Assembly (NCBI GenBank): GCA_951406725.2
Contig: OX597835.1
Span: forward strand, 248,001-312,000
Source of the DNA: Octopus vulgaris
Lineage: Eukaryota
Direction of reading: 5' to 3'
DNA length: 64,000 bases
Shown: in pieces, positions 3,734 through 57,760 of the stretch
Layout: every line of letters begins with the position of its first letter
Numbering within the stretch: the stretch's first letter is position 1
The notes under the pieces: generated by a model
The model's input: only the letters and a program-made list of their open reading frames with translations
Told to the model about the DNA's origin: nothing
Database searches by the model: none
Position numbers and translations under genes: made by a program

Positions 3734-5179
3734 CTGTCTTCATTGATCCTGTGATTCATGTTATTCTGCTGTAGAATTGCTTATCATGGACGAGAGAGCT
3801 TCTGCATGATCATTCGACCGACTGGGTATTGTAACCACATTTCCTTCAAATGACACCCTACCCTAAATATGACAAGGAGCAACACAGTCAGTAATAATGT
3901 TATTTGACACACTATACCTTTAAAAAATGGATGATACGGTCGTAGCTGTAATCCTTTTAAATGTAAAGTTGGCTTAACTAGGGCTAATATGGAGTTAAGC
4001 AACTCCAGCATACACACAATCAAATTTTCCTTTGAAAATGTCTGCTGGTAATTTCTGGAAATTTCAGCTTATGAATATTATCTGAATCTTTATCAATCAA
4101 TCAGTATTTTATTTATCTCATAGAAGTGAGATAAATAATCAACTGTTTAATTTTTTTTCTCTATTCAATATTAACTGTCGAAGGGAACTGAGGAGTAGTT
4201 ATTCCTGTGGACCTCTGGGAAAGGGGTAAGTTCATGATTTCTCTAAGGTCTTATTGACTTATGTGAATCAAAGAGATGAAACTACACCATGAACAAAATA
4301 GCCTTTCCCCCTTAGGCACTTAACACACATCGGCTTTCTTTCTTGTTTTTCTTTTTTCATGTCAAGGATTAATTTAGTTAATTCAATCAAAATGTATGTA
4401 TTAATCTTTAGTTCAGTCTCTATAACAGAAAGGGAAAAGCCATTAGACAAATGGTGTGATTTTATTTGATATTTTCCACACTTATTCCTAGACTTACACC
4501 ATTTTTTTCTTAACAGGAAACATTTCCATTGTTTTTCTTTTTTTTTTCTTTTTTTAAACTCCAAATCAATCCTGAAAGAGCAGATAGATCAATGATCAAA
4601 CCCATTCCAACCATGACCTTCCTGTCTCTTATGATTCAGACATAGTGTACCTATAGCTACATTATTTATGTGGCTCACCTCTTTTTGTGGTTTGGAAGTT
4701 TTAACTATTATTTCTAGAAGGTTAGCAACCATGTAGAGCCTTCCAGATTTGTTCACCCTTCTCCTGTTGTTGGTAGCACAAGAAATTAACAAAGCATTTG
4801 TAAGAGCTATTCCCTAAATTCCAATTAAAACATTCTTTTAAAATGTTAGCGAGACTGTCATTCTTAAAGAAATTACTTCTAAGTATAGCCTTTACCTACA
4901 ATTTAAGTTGATTGGATTGGGTTAGATCTGCGTGTGTTCAGTCTACAGCAGGATGAATACCTCAGCATGTTCTCTCCACCAACCATGCTTTCACTTGGAA
5001 GCTGTGGATTTCAGGTTTAGGCCACACTGGCGGGGCCGGATTAAGACTCATCCTAAGCACTTAAAAGTTTCCTCCTACTTTTTTGAATTGCAAAGTCTTT
5101 GATCAGATCCTCAAAATTAATCTTGGGTAAGACATCTGCATCTATACTTATTAGAAATCAAGGCATCCTGAATATTAAT

Positions 5180-6130
5180 TTAGCAAGTTTGGTCATTTCC
5201 TCGGTGAGACCTAAAGTTCGAAGGTTGTGCTTCACCACCTCGTCCCAGGTTTTCCCGGGTCTACCTCTTCCACAGGTTCCCTCAACCGCTAGGGTGTGGC
5301 GCTTTTTCACACAACTATCTTCATCCATTCTTGTCACATGACTATACCAGCGCAAATGTCTCTCTTGCACACCACAACTGATGCTTCTTAGGTCCAACTT
5401 TTCTCTCAAGGTACTTACACTCTGTTGAGTATGAACACTGACATTACACATCCATCGGAGCATACTGGCTTCATTTCTTGCGAGCTTACGCATATCCTCA
5501 GCAGTCACGGCCCAAGTTTCACTACCATGTAGCATGGCTGTTCATACACATGCGTCATACAGTCTGCCTTTTACTCTGAGTGAGAGGCCTTTTGTCACCA
5601 GCAGAGGTAAGAGCTCTCTGAACTTTGCCCAGGCTATTCTTTAGCAGTTACACTTTCGGCACACCCGCCCCCCATCACTGACTTGGTCACCTAGGTAATG
5701 GAAGCTATCAACTATTTCTAGTTTTTCTCCCTGGAATGTGGCAGAAGTTGGTCTCTGAGCATTTTCAGTGTTTATTGCTCCTGAGCATCTGCCACATACA
5801 AAAACTATCTTCCCAGTTAGCCTTCCTTTGACATTGCTGCACCTCTTATGTGTCCATAGCTTACACTTGGTGCATCTTAAAGAATTTCTACCTATGCCTT
5901 TTCTACAGATCGAGCAGGGCCATCTACCTGAAGGCGTTTGTGATTTGCCTGCCTTCCTACGTATTAGGACTTTGGTTTTAGCTAGGTTGATTTTAAGGCC
6001 CTTCGATTCTAATCCTTGTCTCCACACTTGAAACTTTGCCTCTAGTTCTGATAGTGACTCAGCAATTAGGAGCAAGGTCATCAGCATATAGGAGCTCCCA
6101 GGGGCATCCTGTCTTGAATTCCTCTGTTAT
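5180..6130 (-). mobile_element. RTE-clade-like LINE fragment: reverse-transcriptase C-terminal half with Cys-rich zinc-finger insert
   Basis: Minus strand reads EEFKTGCPWELLYADDL (YADD motif, ~6075-6125), ESKGLKINLAKTK, CSICRKG..CTKCKLWTHKRC..CGRC, FHYLGD, MLHGSETW, LRWYSHV, RGRPGKTW. Frameshifted and 5'-truncated. Confidence 0.9.
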
Positions 6131-28272: not shown

Positions 28273-28560
28273 CTTTTACTGATGGATTATTATTATTTAT
28301 TATTGTTGTTGTTGTTGTGGCAAGCTGGCAGGATCTTTAGAGCAGTGGTCCTAATGCTAAGTAATATTTCTTCTAATTTAAGCACGTTCTGAGTTTAAAT
28401 TTCATTTGGGTGAACTTTGTTTTCATCCCTCTGAGGTTGATAAAGAAAAGTATCTGTCAAGTACTGGGATTAATAGTATCAATTAACCCCCTTCCCTCAG
28501 AATTGCTGGCCTTGTGCCAAAATTTGAAGTCATCAGTATTATTATTAATATTTTTATTAC

Positions 28561-31500
28561 TAAGGCAGCAAGTTGGCAGAATTGTTAACATGCCAGGCAA
28601 AATGCTTCGAAGCATTTCGTCCATCTTTATGTCCTAAGTTCAAATTCTACCAAGGCAGCAAGCTGGCAGAATTGTTAACATGCCAGGCAAAATGCTTAGA
28701 AGCATTTCGTCCATCTTTATGTTCTAAGTTCAAATTCTACCAAGGCAGCAAGCTGGCAGAATTGTTAACATGCCAGGCAAAATGCTTAGAAGCATTTCGT
28801 CCATCTTTATGTTCTAAGTTCAAATTCTACCAAGGCAGCAAGCTGGCAGAATTGTTAACATGCCAGGCAAAATGCTTAGAAGCATTTCGTCCATCTTTAT
28901 GTTCTGAGTTCAAATTCTACCAAGGCAGCAAGCTGGCAGAATTGTTAACATGCCAGGCAAAGTGCTTAGAAGCATTTCGTCCATCTTTATGTTCTGAGTT
29001 CAAATTCTACCAAGGCAGCAAGCTGGCAGAATTGTTAACATGCCAGGCAAAGTGCTTAGAAGCATTTCGTCCATCTTTATGTTCTGAGTTCAAATTCTAC
29101 CAAGGCAGCAAGCTGGCAGAATTGTTAACATGCCAGGCAAAATGCTTAGAAGCATTTCGTCCATCTTTATGTTCTAAGTTCAAATTCTACCAAGGCAGCA
29201 AGCTGGCAGGATTGTTAACATGCCAGGCAAAGTGCTTAGAAGCATTTCGTCCATCTTTATGTTCTAAGTTCAAATTCTACCAAGGCAGCAAGCTGGCAGA
29301 ATTGTTAACATGCCAGGCAAAATGCTTAGAAGCATTTCGTCCATCTTTATGTTCTGAGTTCAAATTCTACCAAGGCAGCAAGCTGGCAGAATCGTTAACA
29401 TGCCAGGCAAAATGCTTAGAAGCATTTCGTCCATCTTTATGTTCTAAGTTCAAATTCTACCAAGGCAGCAAGCTGGCAGAATCGTTAACATGCCAGGCAA
29501 AATGCTTAGAAACATTTCGTCCATCTTTATGTTCTAAGTTCAAATTCTACCAAGGCAGCAAGCTGGCAGAATTGTTAACATGCCAGGCAAAATGCTTAGA
29601 AGCATTTCGTCCATCTTTATGTTCTAAGTTCAAATTCTACCAAGGCAGCAAGCTGGCAGAATTGTTAACATGCCAGGCAAAATGCTTAGAAGCATTTCGT
29701 CCATCTTTATGTTCTAAGTTCAAATTCTACCAATGCAGCAAGCTGGCAGAATTGTTAACATGCCAGGCAAAATGCTTAGAAGCATTTCGTCCATCTTTAT
29801 GTTCTAAGTTCAAATTCTACCAAGGCAGCAAGCTGGCAGAATTGTTAACATGCCAGGCAAAATGCTTAGAAGCATTTCGTCCATCTTTATGTTCTAAGTT
29901 CAAATTCTACCAAGGCAGCAAGCTGGCAGAATTGTTAACATGCCAGGCAAAATGCTTAGAAGCATTTCGTCCATCTTTATGTTCTAAGTTCAAATTCTAC
30001 CAAGGCAGCAAGCTGGCAGAATTGTTAACATGCCAGGCAAAATGCTTAGAAGCATTTCGTCCATCTTTATGTTCTAAGTTCAAATTCTACCAAGGCAGCA
30101 AGCTGGCAGAATTGTTAACATGCCAGGCAAAATGCTTAGAAGCATTTCGTCCATCTTTATGTTCTAAGTTCAAATTCTACCAAGGCAGCAAGCTGGCAGA
30201 ATTGTTAACATGCCAGGCAAAATGCTTAGAAGCATTTCGTCCATCTTTATGTTCTAAGTTCAAATTCTACCAAGGCAGCAAGCTGGCAGAATTGTTAACA
30301 TGCCAGGCAAAATGCTTAGAAGCATTTCGTCCATCTTTATGTTCTAAGTTCAAATTCTACCAAGGCAGCAAGCTGGCAGAATTGTTAACATGCCAGGCAA
30401 AATGCTTAGAAGCATTTCGTCCATCTTTATGTTCTAAGTTCAAATTCTACCAAGGCAGCAAGCTGGCAGAATTGTTAACATGCCAGGCAAAATGCTTAGA
30501 AGCATTTCGTCCATCTTTATGTTCTGAGTTCAAATTCTACCAAGGCAGCAAGCTGGCAGAATCGTTAACATGCCAGGCAAAATGCTTAGAAGCATTTCGT
30601 CCATCTTTATGTTCTAAGTTCAAATTCTGCCAAGGCAGCAAGCTGGCAGAATTGTTAACATGCCAGGCAAAATGCTTAGAAGCATTTCGTCCATCTTTAT
30701 GTTCTAAGTTCAAATTCTGCCAAGGCAGCAAGCTGGCAGAATCGTTAACATGCCAGGCAAAATGCTTAGAAGCATTTCGTCCATCTTTATGTTCTAAGTT
30801 CAAATTCTACCAAGGCAGCAAGCTGGCAGAATCGTTAACATGCCAGGCAAAATGCTTAGAAGCATTTCGTCCATCTTTATGTTCTAAGTTCAAATTCTGC
30901 CAAGGCAGCAAGCTGGCAGAATCGTTAACATGCCAGGCAAAATGCTTAGAAGCATTTCGTCCATCTTTATGTTCTAAGTTCAAATTCTACCAAGGCAGCA
31001 AGCTGGCAGAATCGTTAACATGCCAGGCAAAATGCTTAGAAGCATTTCGTCCATCTTTATGTTCTATGTTCAAATTCTGCCAAGGCAGCAAGCTGGCAGA
31101 ATCGTTAACATGCCAGGCAAAATGCTTAGAAGCATTTCGTCCATCTTTATGTTCTAAGTTCAAATTCTACTAAGGCAGCAAGCTGGCAGAATCGTTAACA
31201 TGCCAGGCAAAATGCTTAGAAGCATTTTGTCCATCTTTATGTTCTAAGTTCAAATTCTGCCAAGGCAGCAAGCTGGCAGAATCGTTAACATGCCAGGCAA
31301 AATGCTTAGAAGCATTTCGTCCATCTTTATGTTCTAAGTTCAAATTCTACCAAGGCAGCAAGCTGGCAGAATCGTTAACATGCCAGGCAAAATGCTTAGA
31401 AGCATTTCGTCCATCTTTATGTTCTAAGTTCAAATTCTACCAAGGCAGCAAGCTGGCAGAATCGTTAACATGCCAGGCAAAATGCTTAGAAGCATTTCGT

Positions 31501-34080
31501 CCATCTTTATGTTCTAAGTTCAAATTCTGCCAAGGCAGCAAGCTGGCAGAATCGTTAACATGCCAGGCAAAATGCTTAGAAGCATTTCGTCCATCTTTAT
31601 GTTCTAAGTTCAAATTCTACCAAGGCAGCAAGCTGGCAGAATCGTTAACATGCCAGGCAAAATGCTTAGAAGCATTTCGTCCATCTTTATGTTCTAAGTT
31701 CAAATTCTGCCAAGGCAGCAAGCTGGCAGAATCGTTAACATGCCAGGCAAAATGCTTAGAAGCATTTCGTCCATCTTTATGTTCTAAGTTCAAATTCTAC
31801 CAAGGCAGCAAGCTGGCAGAATTGTTAACATGCCAGGCAAAATGCTTAGAAGCATTTCGTCCATCTTTATGTTCTAAGTTCAAATTCTACCAAGGCAGCA
31901 AGCTGGCAGAATTGTTAACATGCCAGGCAAAATGCTTAGAAGCATTTCGTCCATCTTTATGTTCTAAGTTCAAATTCTGCCAAGGCAGCAAGCTGGCAGA
32001 ATCGTTAACATGCCAGGCAAAATGCTTAGAAGCATTTCGTCCATCTTTATGTTCTAAGTTCAAATTCTACCAAGGCAGCAAGCTGGCAGAATCGTTAACA
32101 TGCCAGGCAAAATGCTTAGAAGCATTTCGTCCATCTTTATGTTCTAAGTTCAAATTCTGCCAAGGCAGCAAGCTGGCAGAATCGTTAACATGCCAGGCAA
32201 AATGCTTAGAAGCATTTCGTCCATCTTTATGTTCTAAGTTCAAATTCTACCAAGGCAGCAAGCTGGCAGAATCGTTAACATGCCAGGCAAAATGCTTAGA
32301 AGCATTTCGTCCATCTTTATGTTCTAAGTTCAAATTCTGCCAAGGCAGCAAGCTGGCAGAATCGTTAACATGCCAGGCAAAATGCTTAGAAGCATTTCGT
32401 CCATCTTTATGTTCTAAGTTCAAATTCTGCCAAGGCAGCAAGCTGGCAGAATCGTTAACATGCCAGGCAAAATGCTTAGAAGCATTTCGTCCATCTTTAT
32501 GTTCTAAGTTCAAATTCTACCAAGGCAGCAAGCTGGCAGAATCGTTAACATGCCAGGCAAAATGCTTAGAAGCATTTCGTCCATCTTTATGTTCTAAGTT
32601 CAAATTCTGCCAAGGCAGCAAGCTGGCAGAATCGTTAACATGCCAGGCAAAATGCTTAGAAGCATTTCGTCCATCTTTATGTTCTAAGTTCAAATTCTAC
32701 CAAGGCAGCAAGCTGGCAGAATCGTTAACATGCCAGGCAAAATGCTTAGAAGCATTTCGTCCATCTTTATGTTCTAAGTTCAAATTCTGCCAAGGCAGCA
32801 AGCTGGCAGAATTGTTAACATGCCAGGCAAAATGCTTAGAAGCATTTCGTCCATCTTTATGTTCTAAGTTCAAATTCTACCAAGGCAGCAAGCTGGCAGA
32901 ATTGTTAACATGCCAGGCAAAATGCTTAGAAGCATTTCGTCCATCTTTATGTTCTAAGTTCAAATTCTACCAAGGCAGCAAGCTGGCAGAATTGTTAACA
33001 TGCCAGGCAAAATGCTTAGAAGCATTTCGTCCATCTTTATGTTCTAAGTTCAAATTCTACCAAGGCAGCAAGCTGGCAGAATTGTTAACATGCCAGGCAA
33101 AATGCTTAGAAGCATTTCGTCCATCTTTATGTTCTAAGTTCAAATTCTACCAAGGCAGCAAGCTGGCAGAATTGTTAACATGCCAGGCAAAATGCTTAGA
33201 AGCATTTCGTCCATCTTTATGTTCTAAGTTCAAATTCTACCAAGGCAGCAAGCTGGCAGAATTGTTAACATGCCAGGCAAAATGCTTAGAAGCATTTCGT
33301 CCATCTTTATGTTCTAAGTTCAAATTCTACCAAGGCAGCAAGCTGGCAGAATTGTTAACATGCCAGGCAAAATGCTTAGAAGCATTTCGTCCATCTTTAT
33401 GTTCTAAGTTCAAATTCTACCAAGGCAGCAAGCTGGCAGAATTGTTAACATGCCAGGCAAAATGCTTAGAAGCATTTCGTCCATCTTTATGTTCTAAGTT
33501 CAAATTCTACCAAGGCAGCAAGCTGGCAGAATTGTTAACATGCCAGGCAAAATGCTTAGAAGCATTTCGTCCATCTTTATGTTCTAAGTTCAAATTCTAC
33601 CAAGGCAGCAAGCTGGCAGAATTGTTAACATGCCAGGCAAAATGCTTAGAAGCATTTCGTCCATCTTTATGTTCTAAGTTCAAATTCTACCAAGGCAGCA
33701 AGCTGGCAGAATTGTTAACATGCCAGGCAAAATGCTTAGAAGCATTTCGTCCATCTTTATGTTCTAAGTTCAAATTCTACCAAGGCAGCAAGCTGGCAGA
33801 ATTGTTAACATGCCAGGCAAAATGCTTAGAAGCATTTCGTCCATCTTTATGTTCTAAGTTCAAATTCTACCAAGGTAGCAAGCTGGCAGAATTGTTAACA
33901 TGCCAGGCAAAATGCTTAGAAGCATTTCGTCCATCTTTATGTTCTAAGTTCAAATTCTACCAAGGCAGCAAGCTGGCAGAATTGTTAACATGCCAGGCAA
34001 AATGCTTAGAAGCATTTCGTCCATCTTTATGTTCTAAGTTCAAATTCTACCAAGGCAGCAAGCTGGCAGAATCGTTAACA
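28561..34080 (+). repeat. Tandem satellite: 61 full 90-bp units plus a partial unit, each unit being the 5' head of the family-A SINE
   Basis: Unit caaggcagcaagctggcagaat(t/c)gttaacatgccaggcaaaatgcttagaagcatttcgtccatctttatgttct(a/g)agttcaaattct(a/g)c. Exact 90-bp register from 28561 to 34051. The last unit runs into a complete SINE body. Confidence 0.98.
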
Positions 34081-34497
34081 CACTGGATGGAAGGATCAGC
34101 AGTATTTCGTCTGTCGCTACATTCTCGGTTCAAATTCTGCCATGGTCAACTTTGCCTTTCATCCTTTTGGAGTCAATAAATTAAGTACCAGTGAAATACT
34201 GGGGTCAATGTAATTGACTATTCCCCTCCCCTGAAATTTCAGGCCTTGTGCCTTTGGTAGAAAGGATTATTATTCTTATTAAGGCAGCAAGCTAGCAGAA
34301 TCGTTAACATGCTAGATGAGATGTTTTCTCTTGTTTATGTTCTGAGTTCAAATTCCACCAAGGTTGACTTTGCTTTTCATCCTTTCAGGGTTGATAAAAT
34401 AAGTACCAGTTGAGTACTGGGGTCGATATAATCGACTATCCCCCTCCCCCAAATTTCAGGCCTTGTGCTTATAATAGAAAGGATTATTATTATTACT
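34051..34497 (+). mobile_element. Two complete family-A SINEs closing the satellite
   Basis: ggtcaactttgcctttcatcctttt...gtaccag...aaatttcaggccttgtgc...gaaaggattattatt occurs twice. Confidence 0.88.
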
Positions 34498-37044: not shown

Positions 37045-37325
37045 CAACTCACCCCTATTCAAGCTCACTCCTAACTCAAGCTCACTCCTAACTCAAGTCC
37101 ACCCCTAACTAAAGCCTACCCCAACTCAAGCCCCCACCCCAACTCAAGCCCCCACCCCAACTCAAGCCCCCACCCCAACTCAAGCCCCCACCCCAACTCA
37201 AGCCCCCACCCCAACTCAAGCTCACTTCTAACTCAAGCCCACCCTGAACACAAACACACCTTCAACTTAAGCCTACCCCCAAATCCAGCTCGCCTCCCAA
37301 CTCAGTCTCATCCCCAACTCAACTC
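37045..37325. repeat. 17-18-bp C-rich minisatellite (ccccaactcaagccccca)
   Basis: Perfect 18-bp units at ~37120-37220 with degenerate flanking units. Confidence 0.85.
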
Positions 37326-39979: not shown

Positions 39980-41860
39980 CCACTCAGCACCACTACTGCC
40001 GTCCACCACCACCACTACCACCACCGATACCGTCACTACGATCGTTACAACTACTACTACTACTACTGCTGCTTTTACGCCTCTTCCCCCCCTCCCGTAC
40101 TCTCTCAAAGTCATGCTTCTATTTCTCGGTCTCATTCATCGTCGTGTCGCTTCCATTCATTGCGTACCAACAACAGCAACAATTACAACACGCACCTCGA
40201 TTCCAATTGAGGAAACATGACTACGTTCTTCAGCTGAATTGCATAACTTGCACACCTAACAACATCGGCAGCTGCACCGCTGCTGCTGCTGCTGCCCGCT
40301 GCTGCTGCTGCTGCTGCCCACCGCTGCTGCTGCTGTGTCTTGTGTTTGCAGTCTCTGTCACTAGTCACTACTTTGTAGTAGTTCCAGAGCGGTTGAGCGC
40401 CATCGTTAACGCTTCCGCGCAAATCACATGCCAGGGGTGTGAAAGGGGAGGGGTGGAAAAAAAAAGCAACAACGAAAAAAGTAAGAAAAGAAGAAAAAAG
40501 CTTAAAGCAAATTAAAACCTCGAAAACCGACAAAATAAACAAGAAAAGGGGGAAAAACCCTACATTTGAGAAATATACAAAAACATAATAAATTTTCCAA
40601 AAAAGCATTGTTTGTAACTTAACTTTTCACAAGAATCTTGGAAACCTTGTACATATCAATCATCACAACGTGAAGTCGGAATGAAGCTACGGTGAAAGAA
40701 AATAAGAAAAAGAATCAAACCATAGACATCTCCAGAAGGATCGCAAAAGCAAGCTGAACGTTGATGCAACTCGCCAAAGAGTGAACCCATTTCCAAACGG
40801 ATGTACTTACATATTTCGCTGCTTTCAAACCCTTTTGCTTCTTGGAATTTATTAGGGTGGGTGGTTTGCAAGTAGTTGTTTGTTTTTGTTTTTTGTTTTA
40901 TTGTTGTTGCTATTATTATTATCATTTATATTTATGTGTGTAAGTATTTTGACTTAACTTCCCCACACCGACGGAACACATACACTTCGGGTAAATATGG
41001 ACATACGGAAAACTACTGCTGCCCTTCATACTACTACTACTACAACTTCTACCACTGTCGAGTTTATTGTATGTGTGTGTGGTGTATCCTCTCCCCATAA
41101 CCTTTCCTCACACACACACATCCACAGGTTACTTTATTTCTCTTTTAAATTCTTTTTTCTTCTTTCTCTCATACCTTTAATTTCCTTGTGTGAAGTTTTT
41201 TCCTTCTGTGAAGTTTAGCCCCGCATCATCTCTCCTCTCAGTTTCCATCCATCTCCGTTCTTGCTCTTTTCCATTCTTTCACCACACACACACACACACA
41301 CACACACCCGTCTCCTTTTCTTCTCTTTCCCTTCTTTTCTGATTATTCTTCAAAGATTTAAAACCTCTTTCTTCGTCCTTTCCTCCTAAATTCTCTTTCT
41401 TCCTCTTCCACACCACATCTCTCCACCACTTCGCCCTCACTATTCTCTCCACCCTGATGCCAATAGCAACAGTAGCGGCGGCGCTAGCTTAATATTAAGA
41501 CAATTTACTTTAATTAATTCTGCTTGGTCTCTCCCTCTTCACATCCTTTTGTTTTGCTCTTCTTTATATGTTCTCAACTACCTTTGATCTTCTGGTCACA
41601 CTGTGCGCATAACACGTTAACCCTTGAAACAACACATGTGCGCGCGCGCGCGTGTGTTAAAGAGAGAGAGAGAGAGAGACCGACCGCGTATGTTCGCGCG
41701 CGCGCGCGGTTTCGTGTCATTTTTGCGCAGATGGGACACACGCCGAAGAGTATTGTTTTATTAATTGACATGTATTTTTGTGCCCGTCTGTTATGGAGTC
41801 AATTGGGTTAAGCTAATGAATGGCTGCGGCTCGCGTGTCTTAGAGAGAGAGAGAGAGAGA
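39980..41860. promoter_or_regulatory. TE-free, CpG-enriched island; probable promoter or first exon of an unidentified gene
   Basis: Many CpGs versus depleted flanks, (CG)n runs, (CTG)n, an Inr-like TCATTC at 40132, an A-rich 5'UTR-like stretch (40457-40720), and an upstream 800-bp pyrimidine tract. Confidence 0.45.
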
Positions 41861-43029
41861 CCTATGTGCGTGTGTGTATGTATGAATGGGTTTCCTTAAT
41901 GTGTCTGTAAGATTAAGTATGTATACGTGTCTACATATATATGTAGTTGGTGTATATGAAAAGTATATATGTGTATGTATGTATGTATACATATGTGTAT
42001 GTATATATACGTATGTGTATGTACATATACGTGTGTGTATGTATATATATATGTGTATATATGTACGTATACATACATATATAAATACACATACCGCACA
42101 CGCTATTTAAAACAATGATGATATTAATAGAACCGTGTAACAATGTTATAAATTATCACTAACACAATTATGATACTCGACCGCCTTTGTTTGGATAGAA
42201 ATCTCTGATCAAATGCTTTATCAAGGGAGATCCTACAAGATAGGGGTTGCCAGATTTCTTATTAATTAATTCCTCCCCTTTTTCACAGATATTTTAATAC
42301 ACAGAAAAGAGCAAAAAATTCTATTGTTAACAAATGTCCTAGAATTTTCTATCATCCTCCAAGACTAGTTAATAATTACATTGTGCTTCTATTAATTAGA
42401 GTAAAGAAATATTTACTAATTAGAATTACTAATTCTATTTTTGAGGGAATATGGTGTTTTGGTCCAAATATTTCCAGTTTTTAGTAATATTTGTTATTCA
42501 TTGTTGCATGTCCACACTTCTCTCTCTCCCTCTCTCTCTCCATATATATATATATATGTATGTATGTGTGTATATATATATGTACATATATGTATGTATG
42601 TGTGTGTATATATATATGTACATATATGTATGTATATACATACATACATACATACAAACATGTTATTTTTATACATTTACATATGCACAGAGTGCGCATG
42701 CAGATATATACATACACACACACACACACTCGGGTATATCTTGAAATTGTTTGTCTCAAAGAACAGCCTTAATGTTTTGGAAGACAATTTAATTAAGCCA
42801 AACAGTTTGCATATTCTCATTAACATGGTGATTATTAAAAACAACTGAAAACAAATCAGCAAACATATATAAAAACATTCTACTTGTACAAAAATACTGC
42901 TCTGATGTCCTTCTACTGGTTTCTCTTATGACTGACCAAGCTGGGGCACTTGCTGTCTCAGTAGAAAGGAATTTTCATTTTTTTCATAGTTTATCAGATT
43001 CTATTATTAGTGTTGTTGTTGTTGTTGTT

Positions 43030-56859: not shown

Positions 56860-57760
56860 ATAATAATGGTTTCAAAATTTGGCATAAGGCTAGTAATTGG
56901 GGGGTGGGCATGCAACTTAGTCAATTACATCACCCCAGTATTTGATGGGTACTTTATTTTATTGACCCCGAAAAGTTGAAAGGCAATAATAATAATAATA
57001 ATCCTTCCTACAACAGGCATAAGGCCTGAAATTTTGGGGAGGGGACTAATTGATTACATTGACCCCAGTGTATCACTGGTACTTAATTTATTGACCCCGA
57101 ACAGATGAAAGTCAAAGTCACCCCCTCCCCTCCAGAATTTGAACTCAGAATGTAAAGAGTCTGAAGAAATAAATTCCACAAAGCATTTTAACTGACGTGT
57201 TACGATTCTGCCAGTTTAATAATAATGATAATAATAAGGCCAGCTCAGGATCAACTGGTGCTTATTTTATTGACCCTGAAATGAGGAATGGCAAAGTCAA
57301 CCTTGGCGGAATTTGAACTCAGAACATGAAGTCAGACAAAATACCTATTTCTTTACTACCCACAAGGGGCTAAACACAGAGAGGACAAACAAGGACAGAC
57401 AGATGGATTAAGTCAATTACATCGACTCCAGTGCATAACTGGTACTTATTTAATCGACCCCGAAAGGATGAAAAGCAAAGTCAACCATGGCGGAATTTGA
57501 ACTCAGAACATGAAGTCAGACAAAATACCTATTTCTTTACTAGCCACGGGGCTAAACACAGAGAGGACAAACAAGGACAGACAGATGGATTAAGTCGATT
57601 ACATCGACTCCAGTGCATAACTGGTACTTATTTAATCGACCCCGAAAGGATGAAAAGCAAAGTCAACCATGGCGGAATTTGAACTCAGAACATGAAGTCA
57701 GACATAATACCGCTAAGCATTTCGCCTGGCAGGCTAACAATTCTACAGGCTTGCCACGTT
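56860..57760 (-). mobile_element. Family-A SINE cluster including a ~183-bp tandemly repeated variant
   Basis: tggcggaatttgaactcagaacatgaagtcagaca at ~57304, 57488 and 57670. Confidence 0.85.

Follow-up and report, generated by a model that had tools for sequence, protein, structure and literature searches.

A single-locus subtelomeric minisatellite of 61 aged SINE heads, probably grown by slippage or unequal exchange

Results

The tandem array at positions 28562-34051 (plus strand) of the window, i.e. the whole 64,000-nucleotide stretch of DNA analysed here, is most likely a single-locus subtelomeric minisatellite made of 61 aged SINE heads. It likely arose when two SINE starts, separated by 90 bases, were misaligned at the DNA level. 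Slippage or unequal exchange is the likely mode of its growth, and the array is probably neutral.

The 61 units are each exactly 90 bp long and contain no indels, as the first-pass annotation had described, and a 62nd head begins directly behind them at 34052. TRF reports 61.4 copies with 98% matches. The units fall into 14 distinct sequences and differ pairwise by a mean of 1.4 per 90 bases (1.6%; mean identity 98.4%). The single TTTT that the annotation had noted on the plus strand is confirmed: it lies at 31225-31228 and results from a lone C57T variant. A telomere repeat occupies C22:1-757, and the array, at C22:276,562, lies 276 kb from the telomere. The genome search proposed by the annotation for further arrays of the 90-mer finds the 180-bp unit dimer at full length at the array locus alone, and the junction pattern gives 61 matches in the array and 2 single sites elsewhere. 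Dimer and junction are thus confined to one locus, and the 90-bp unit is not one that recurs at many loci under concerted evolution.

The array is real. Its words are present in public assemblies from four studies, under two organism labels, and the ratio of array unitig depth to flank depth is 38-52 in run X1, 52-54 in X9, 79-96 in X3 and at least 19 in X2; the ratios of 38-96 over X1, X9 and X3 are rough, contig depth being different from copy number, and X1 may derive from the same sample as the genome assembly. An assembly artefact, in which a few real units had been expanded to the present length, is extremely unlikely. The exact unit count does come from a single assembly, and the depth of X1 points to about 40-50 units and not to 61; against this, unitigs that span the unit junction reach a depth of 1767 in X1 (flank 62) and 4037 in X3 (flank 42), array unitigs show sequencing-error bubbles of the type typical for very high depth, and structured variants are common to the units. 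These observations refute the 1-3 units that the annotation had set as the sign of an artefact. The joint between the array and the final SINE is bridged by 89-base contigs in X1 and X9; contig matching at 88% likeness was dominated by other SINE copies. The length of the array likely still varies between individuals.

Junction contigs also occur in X7 and X11 (depth 42 and 9, flank cover near nil), whose libraries are only guessed to be RNA, and low-depth DNA would give the same picture. Since contigs show neither strand nor level, these count neither for nor against an array RNA. Among the 24 runs, seven with array words are only guessed to be RNA, and X20, which is on record as RNA, holds a fraction of 0.07 of the array words, which likewise speaks for neither side.

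The unit corresponds to positions 1-90 of a SINE family of ~215-235 bp and is 88-92% identical to dispersed heads over 81-98 bases. The parent SINE is short, dispersed and ATT-tailed, with 93,557 exact 20-base head motifs in the genome. OR1, OR2 and OK are named octopus SINEs. OR2 is described as a CORE SINE in the part of PMC4758252 available to us. A shared 3' end was looked for with the one LINE fragment in the 64-kb window, the only LINE compared, and the SINE has no match to it. The unit differs from a young copy at 19 positions, 10 of which are CpG transitions, and retains 1 CpG versus 9-11 in young heads. Furthermore, its fold is no better than that of shuffled sequences (z -0.3), whereas a long hairpin is seen in young heads (z as low as -4.7), and the multimeric structured ncRNA suggested by the annotation is weakened for this reason. 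The two hairpins it described per unit are both present in the DNA fold, the second one having 7 pairs and a 4-base loop and not a 2-base loop. As far as its sequence tells, the array is built from an aged, CpG-decayed SINE copy that had lost the young head's fold.

Two promoter-like boxes recur every 90 bp on the plus strand, with a spacing of 52 bases. The A-like box (unit positions 13-23; 28574-28584 in unit 1) matches TRGYNNANNNG in 60/61 units, and the B-like box (unit positions 76-86; 28637-28647 in unit 1) reads GTTCAAATTC in all 61. In the latter, T replaces the C61 of tRNAs, and a strict GWTCRANNC box is found in 0/61 units. Of 28 tRNA genes examined in the genome, 21 have a readable box, and all 21 carry C at this position; the T is common to 27/29 sampled heads of the family. 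Neither ARAGORN nor Rfam calls a tRNA in the unit or in a young SINE copy, and a comparison with 28 tRNA sequences gives a best z of 2.7. It is to these boxes, the B-like one being without its C, that the head owes the label tRNA-like given by the annotation. Rfam also returns the R2 element (E 0.38 and 1.5) and c-di-GMP-I (E 7.5) for the array, with scores far under the gathering level, and these matches are taken as chance.

The variants are distributed in blocks. Units 23-47 (30542-32791, plus strand) combine T22C with an alternating A88G in an imperfect 180-bp higher-order pattern: in a runs test, A88G shows 21 runs over these 25 central units (p 0.0016), and the difference between units is 0.78 at lag 2 versus 1.25 at lag 1. 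T22C is clustered in 9 runs, as few being seen in 0/100,000 shuffles. The blocks and the two-unit alternation are as expected for a DNA-level expansion.

On its left side, the array follows ATT-rich DNA, as annotated, which proves to be the tail end of a further copy of this SINE, older and diverged (~28320-28561, plus strand; 67-73% to the downstream copies by blastn). The left junction, TACTAAGG (28558-28565), is 7/8 identical to the internal junction TACCAAGG, so that the microhomology is real and longer than the aagg first noticed. On its right side, the array runs into a SINE (34052-34280, plus strand) that is indeed complete, with a TTTT at 34165 and an ATT tail, but is chimeric and not the parent of the unit. 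Its first 29 bases are array-type (29/29 versus the T22C unit) and the remainder is of another SINE variant (39/61 over positions 30-90, a poorer match than that of any other among 29 heads sampled). A third, complete SINE (34281-34495, plus strand), with an 11-base gap in its head, matches the T22C unit at 31/32 of its first 32 bases, which carry a base present in 3/100 family copies, and falls to 74% over positions 30-90. Simple nesting of the final SINE into the parent copy was rejected, the parent body being absent 3' of the final SINE; for a long target-site duplication in which the third SINE would be the parent, support ends with these first 32 bases.

The same SINE has given rise to tandem arrays at least at 18 other loci among the first 100 of 168 matches listed; of the matches outside these 100, 53 come from the C26 array, which accounts for 65 in total (12 listed), and 15 from others. 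Among the matches listed, at least 5 clear arrays consist of two-box heads in 3-4 copies each, and the array at 28562-34051 is the only long one with both boxes. The C26 array (101 bp x 67) has the B-like box only, A-box-only arrays exist with units of, e.g., 16, 22, 29, 55 and 65 bp, and box-less arrays of the SINE body, with up to about 30 copies, are found at 27 loci or more among the first 100 of 134 matches listed. Long C26 arrays sit mid-chromosome, which implies that a subtelomeric place is not required.

Discussion

The origin we propose for the array combines three steps. In the first one, of which the structure is seen and the route is conjectural, a head cut just past the B-like box would have come to lie before a different SINE, joined to it at TACYAAGG. 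Joints of this head-to-head form are frequent in the family: the exact-motif B-A-B pattern, with gaps of 18-45, occurs at 231 sites, of which the 100 listed lie on C1-C8. In the second one, two near-identical starts would mispair and the head would be duplicated, the last head changing at base 29-30 from array-type sequence to that of the other SINE. In the third one, repeated local duplications of 1-2 units would generate the variant blocks and the alternating centre that are observed. Steps 1 and 2 may have taken place either way round. The 31/32 match of the third SINE means that the simplest version of this scheme must add gene conversion or a target-site duplication; a scan of 28 loci for such duplications returned mostly SINE-to-SINE homology, with 3 loci off pattern, and no count was drawn from it.

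Could the array have been made by retrotransposition instead, through repeated template jumps or SINE self-insertion? Stacked pieces that restart at head position 50 follow in 10/22 head-to-head loci, and the remainder of the first copy is absent in several joints, which a template jump could bring about and which may explain step 1. The joint of the array, however, lies at 90/1 and not at 49/50, its units have no tail, one decayed old-copy state is present in all 61 of them, and the variants are shared blockwise and not singly scattered. A retrotranspositional origin of the array itself is therefore very unlikely, and misalignment followed by DNA-level growth is preferred. The satellite caught at birth of the first-pass annotation is thus retained as a tandem array of SINE heads, at one locus and with microhomology joints; the reading as a birth is weakened, because samples of four studies, under two organism labels, share the array, and the copy it was built from had decayed beforehand.

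A second question is that of function. The array could be a TFIIIC/Pol III platform that either separates subtelomeric chromatin from the CpG-rich stretch at 40-42 kb, as a boundary, or serves as a source of multimeric RNA; on the sequence features considered here, we hold this to be quite unlikely. That the array would be retained for serial TFIIIC loading, as a barrier to the CpG-rich candidate promoter 6 kb off, or for a kilobase-long multimeric Pol III RNA, is decidedly unlikely. The platform would be favoured by the presence of both boxes in 60-61 of the 61 units, with a spacing within the 30-60 bp optimum given in the accessible part of PMC11346459, by the lone TTTT over 5.5 kb, by the location of the array between the telomere and the CpG-rich stretch, and by its being kept in two organism labels. 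In mammals, TFIIIC is reported at Alu and B2 boundaries in the parts of PMC7014570 and PMC8136502 available to us. On the other hand, the B-like box lacks C61, the fold of the young head is lost, and the scarcity of TTTT is inherited from the SINE head. Box-biased conservation was looked for and not found among the 14 variant sites, which give little power (3/22 box positions versus 11/68 non-box positions, p 1.0). Moreover, box-less and one-box arrays form just as readily. TFIIIB is placed about 50 bp upstream in the same part of PMC11346459, and the start of each following unit is only 5-15 bases downstream of a B-like box, so that TFIIIB would overlap the preceding B-like box and initiation would be limited to roughly every second unit at best. 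The ~60 potential TFIIIC/Pol III sites of the annotation are weakened by the non-canonical box and by this presumed clash.

The CpG-rich stretch (40001-42000, no strand assigned; o/e 0.88-0.90 versus 0.10-0.57 elsewhere) is a possible promoter and serves as context only. Pfam scans of 16 + 115 open frames, over the window and 80 kb of neighbouring DNA, show no clear host exon; they yield pieces of transposase and reverse transcriptase, besides a small number of weak matches under the threshold; the second scan took 115 of 127 candidate frames, the 12 omitted being in part scanned before and in part repeat-derived. One frame of the array is open for 869 + 1001 codons, as a cysteine-rich protein of 30-residue repeats would require. 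Chance alone is expected to leave 1/6 frames open in a 90-bp unit, an ATG is absent from this frame of the consensus unit, a TAA at 31171 splits the frame, Pfam gives no match and the unit is clearly the head of a SINE. Such a coding role is exceedingly improbable.

We propose that the Pol III boxes are passengers from the SINE. The genome holds dozens more arrays from the same SINE, at all stages from 2 to 67 copies, and since this SINE gave many other tandem rows, the array is most likely a commonplace repeat without function, of the type known from lizards and snakes, and most likely neutral. Its standing as the sole long both-box array among the matches listed and its persistence in two organism labels would also fit a function. 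If serial TFIIIC loading were true, the array would be a SINE promoter turned into a boundary element of variable length, and TFIIIC occupancy would turn it into a natural, length-variable test of stacked Pol III boxes as a boundary.

Comparison with known systems

Among transposon-derived satellites, as presented in the accessible part of PMC12692304, the array shares the tandemisation of part of an element followed by its expansion, and differs in being single-locus, at the early 'library' stage only. The Pol III-type repeats of amphibians (OAX/satellite I of Xenopus, PolIII/TAN of Cynops, Rana/polIII and Hy/polIII) are, like the array, tandem units with a tRNA-like internal promoter. In the part of PMC10702118 available to us, they are abundant families with units of 200-360+ nt and no parent SINE identified, one of them being transcribed in vitro, whereas the array is one 5.5-kb locus with a clear parent SINE and without a terminator per unit (one TTTT in 61 units).

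In conclusion, the array matches the SINE-derived satellites sSat1-3 of scaled reptiles (Vassetzky, Kosushkin, Ryskov 2023, PMC10702118; compared here with the part of that article available to us). In both cases the unit is part of a SINE, tRNA-type in sSats and putatively so here, and shorter than it (sSat 70-290 nt; array 90 bp, positions 1-90 of ~215-235 bp). Where sSats have at least 4 middle monomers head to tail, a longer terminal unit reaching the SINE end, and homogeneous long loci with alternating sub-variants, the array has 61 units, the SINE at 34052-34280, though chimeric, and 98.4% identity with the A88G alternation (p 0.0016). The subtelomeric preference of sSats is found at the array locus only (276 kb), the C26 arrays being mid-chromosome, and beside their copy-number variation between orthologous loci stand depth ratios of 38-96 over three runs, which are rough. 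In both cases many short heterogeneous loci exist beside a few long ones, and head-covering units occur among sSats too (sSat3Ppi2, sSat3Gja2). Unlike sSats, the terminal SINE of the array is a different copy from the parent, and the unit has not spread to other loci. A unit made of the head alone with both boxes is exceedingly rare among long sSat loci (sSat3Ppi2). We found no report in the literature of a SINE-derived satellite in an octopus-like genome. The sSats are known from squamates and their occurrence elsewhere is left open in that part of the article; the array, which belongs to an invertebrate genome, offers a clean and readable case, outside this group, of the passage from SINE to satellite.

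Results

The array occupies window positions 28562-34051 and consists of 61 units, each exactly 90 bp and free of indels, followed by a 62nd head that runs on into the SINE body, as the first-pass annotation had described. Several of its other structural claims were likewise confirmed: 60 of the 61 units have an intact A-like box and 61/61 carry the B-like motif GTTCAAATTC, the only + strand TTTT in the array lies at 31225 (the next one is at 34165), and the two hairpins announced for each unit were both seen in the DNA fold. The units comprise 14 distinct sequences and differ pairwise by 1.4 bases on average; the left and the internal unit junction are identical at 7 of 8 bases.

The possibility of an assembly artefact of only 1-3 units is excluded by the unitig depth in public sequencing runs. 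Array words were found in 19 of the 24 runs listed, at shares of 0.33-0.47 and under two organism labels, and four deep runs from four studies (X1, X2, X3, X9) were compared with the array at 98% likeness. The array unitigs reached a depth of 2570 in X1, 4038 in X3 (organism B), 1223 in X9 and, for one variant, 919 in X2; the flank unitigs had depths of 62, 42, 24 and 49, respectively, and the array/flank ratios were ~38-52, 79-96, 52-54 and at least 19. Unitigs spanning the unit junction, a sequence present in the searched assembly (G000) at this array only, had depths of 1767 (X1) and 4037 (X3). Because contig depth does not measure copy number and X1 could be the sample that was assembled, these values are read as tens of units in several individuals, and they hint at variation in length.

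The window corresponds to G000:C22:248001-312000, in a genome of 2.8 Gb and 227 contigs. Contig C22 (50.8 Mb) opens with 757 bases of telomere repeat (L048:1-757), which places the array 276 kb from the chromosome end; beyond the telomere repeat comes a subtelomeric satellite with a 15-bp unit, at least 13.8 kb in length (L048:6172-L049:9999). Copies of a single SINE surround the array: an old one lies to its left, with the ATT tail as flank, and two complete ones follow on the right. A 20-base head motif of this SINE has 93,557 exact matches in the genome. Domain scans of open frames from the window and its neighbourhood identified no host exon. A CpG-rich stretch is found at 40-42 kb of the window, and 2.7 kb before it an 18-bp C-rich tandem repeat of 15 copies (37059-37322). 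The window also holds a U6 snRNA match, gene or pseudogene, at 17047-17144 (55 bits, above the gathering score). On its - strand, 1905-2941 and 5158-6126 hold a mariner transposase in broken form (Transposase_1, HTH_48) and a fragment resembling a LINE that gave a PHD-type hit.

The unit represents SINE positions 1-90, its best dispersed matches reaching 88-92% over 81-98 bases. It differs from a young copy by 19 bases, 10 of them CpG transitions, and it retains 1 CpG where young heads have 9-11: the unit is derived from an aged SINE copy. Heads near the C22 end (window, L050-L057) mostly contain 0-4 CpG and interior copies (L059-L067) 9-11, a contrast that may reflect regional methylation or age. 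Young heads fold as a single long hairpin, the six best scoring z -2.3 to -4.7 and five of these being CpG-rich; the main unit and its variant score z -0.3 and -1.9. At L052:4480-4565, L060:5929-6014 and L067:6199-6283 the young heads form a rod-like hairpin of ~88 bases (dG -36 to -44, z -3 to -4.7) that differs from a cloverleaf, and the head seemingly has two A-like stretches. Neither ARAGORN nor Rfam matched a tRNA in the unit, and comparison with 28 genome tRNA sequences gave a best z of 2.7; these weak alignments suggest that the tRNA-like part of the head may span ~29-90, with a second A-like stretch at 34-50. The B-like box carries a T where 21/21 readable genome tRNA genes have C, and this T is family-wide (27/29 heads).

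At the right end, the 62nd head is identical to the T22C unit variant over 29 bases and then matches at only 39/61, the lowest value among 29 heads sampled from 238 kb; past this switch, which X1 and X9 contigs bridge with no difference, it bears variants of another SINE type. The right end is thus a chimera, which rules out a simple internal duplication of the terminal SINE as the origin of the array. In the third SINE, the first bases (34281-34312) are array-type (31/32) and include a base seen in 3 of 100 family copies among the matches listed; gene conversion or target-site duplication could account for this start.

Other arrays of the same SINE were sought with sequence patterns. A triple B-box pattern (periods 76-105) gave 168 genome matches, 56 of them in the 61-unit array, 65 in an array on contig C26 and, among the matches listed, short arrays at at least 17 further loci. 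The C26 array (L068:2466-9211, G000:C26:21165465-21172210) contains 67 units of 101 bp with B-like box and core, starting at head position 50 and holding ~6 CpG each; ~2.4 kb away lies a SINE-derived array of 158 bp x 18 (L069:1642-4476), and the two provide a natural control for the 61-unit array. TRF on 19 stretches revealed two-box head arrays, five of them clear, with 3-4 copies, and another degenerate; arrays uniting the B box with SINE body were numerous (e.g. 158 bp x 18, 184 bp x 6). A-box patterns returned arrays resembling the SINE, at periods of e.g. 16, 22, 29, 55 and 65 bp, together with unrelated repeats, as matches of the control patterns indicate. With a core pattern lacking the boxes, 134 matches were obtained, the first 100 covering at least 27 loci with up to ~30 copies. 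A 32-bp SINE-core unit forms arrays at numerous distinct loci (e.g. G000:C1:202843395-202844337), which suggests a fixed internal microhomology. Array formation can involve any part of this SINE, and what sets the 61-unit array apart is solely its length, the greatest observed among arrays that have both boxes.

Discussion

The variant T22C occurs in blocks (9 runs, as few in 0 of 100,000 shuffles), and in units 23-47 A88G alternates (21 runs in 25 units, p 0.0016), lag-2 pairs being closer than lag-1 pairs. This pattern is that of successive local DNA-level duplications of one or two units. In the model we propose, a head cut after the B-like box, with a new SINE start directly behind it, would be the starting point, and growth would proceed by such duplications. 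Joints of this type are common: the exact motif occurs at 231 sites with gaps of 18-45, and two further joints have the array's own spacing. Many of the 22 joints inspected lack the remainder of the first copy, so that the first joint may have formed by deletion, by an insertion that removed target sequence, or by a template jump. At L117, L118, L125, L127, L128 and L133-L135, a head cut at ~position 100 precedes a full SINE; the remainder of the first copy was not found within ~700 bases, divergence is often similar, and these loci are possibly template-jump chimeras. The SINE also often continues as stacked units restarting at head position 50, with a period of ~182-186 bp (L119, L121, L122, L124, L130-L132, L136, L041, L042; window 57253-57711; L084:2284-3376), a place that differs from the joint of the 61-unit array.

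The array is most likely neutral, and no result points to a function. The boxes are not poorer in variant sites than the rest of the unit (3/22 vs 11/68, a comparison of low power), and an ORF across the array was discarded, as it has no ATG in the consensus unit and is interrupted by a stop. The A-B spacing falls within the workable range, the optimum being 30-60 bp (PMC11346459). TFIIIB assembles ~50 bp upstream of the start (PMC11346459), a site that in the array coincides with the B-like box of the previous unit, so that no more than roughly half the units would be usable. A role as boundary or source of a multimeric RNA, put forward in the first-pass annotation, is considered improbable.

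The literature covered on SINE-derived satellites, octopus SINEs and octopus satellite DNA or repeats yielded no octopus report, most subscription papers falling outside this coverage, and the authors of the squamate study left open the occurrence of SINE-derived satellites outside squamates (PMC10702118). The array is real, and its kind is already known from such satellites. In those of squamates, the units are parts of a SINE, the terminal unit is longer, long loci are homogeneous, sub-variants alternate and locations are biased towards subtelomeres (PMC10702118); the octopus array, itself subtelomeric, resembles them in these respects. It differs in that its unit is the SINE head, a type rare in the long loci of squamates according to the main text of that study, beyond which closer head-only cases may exist (PMC10702118).
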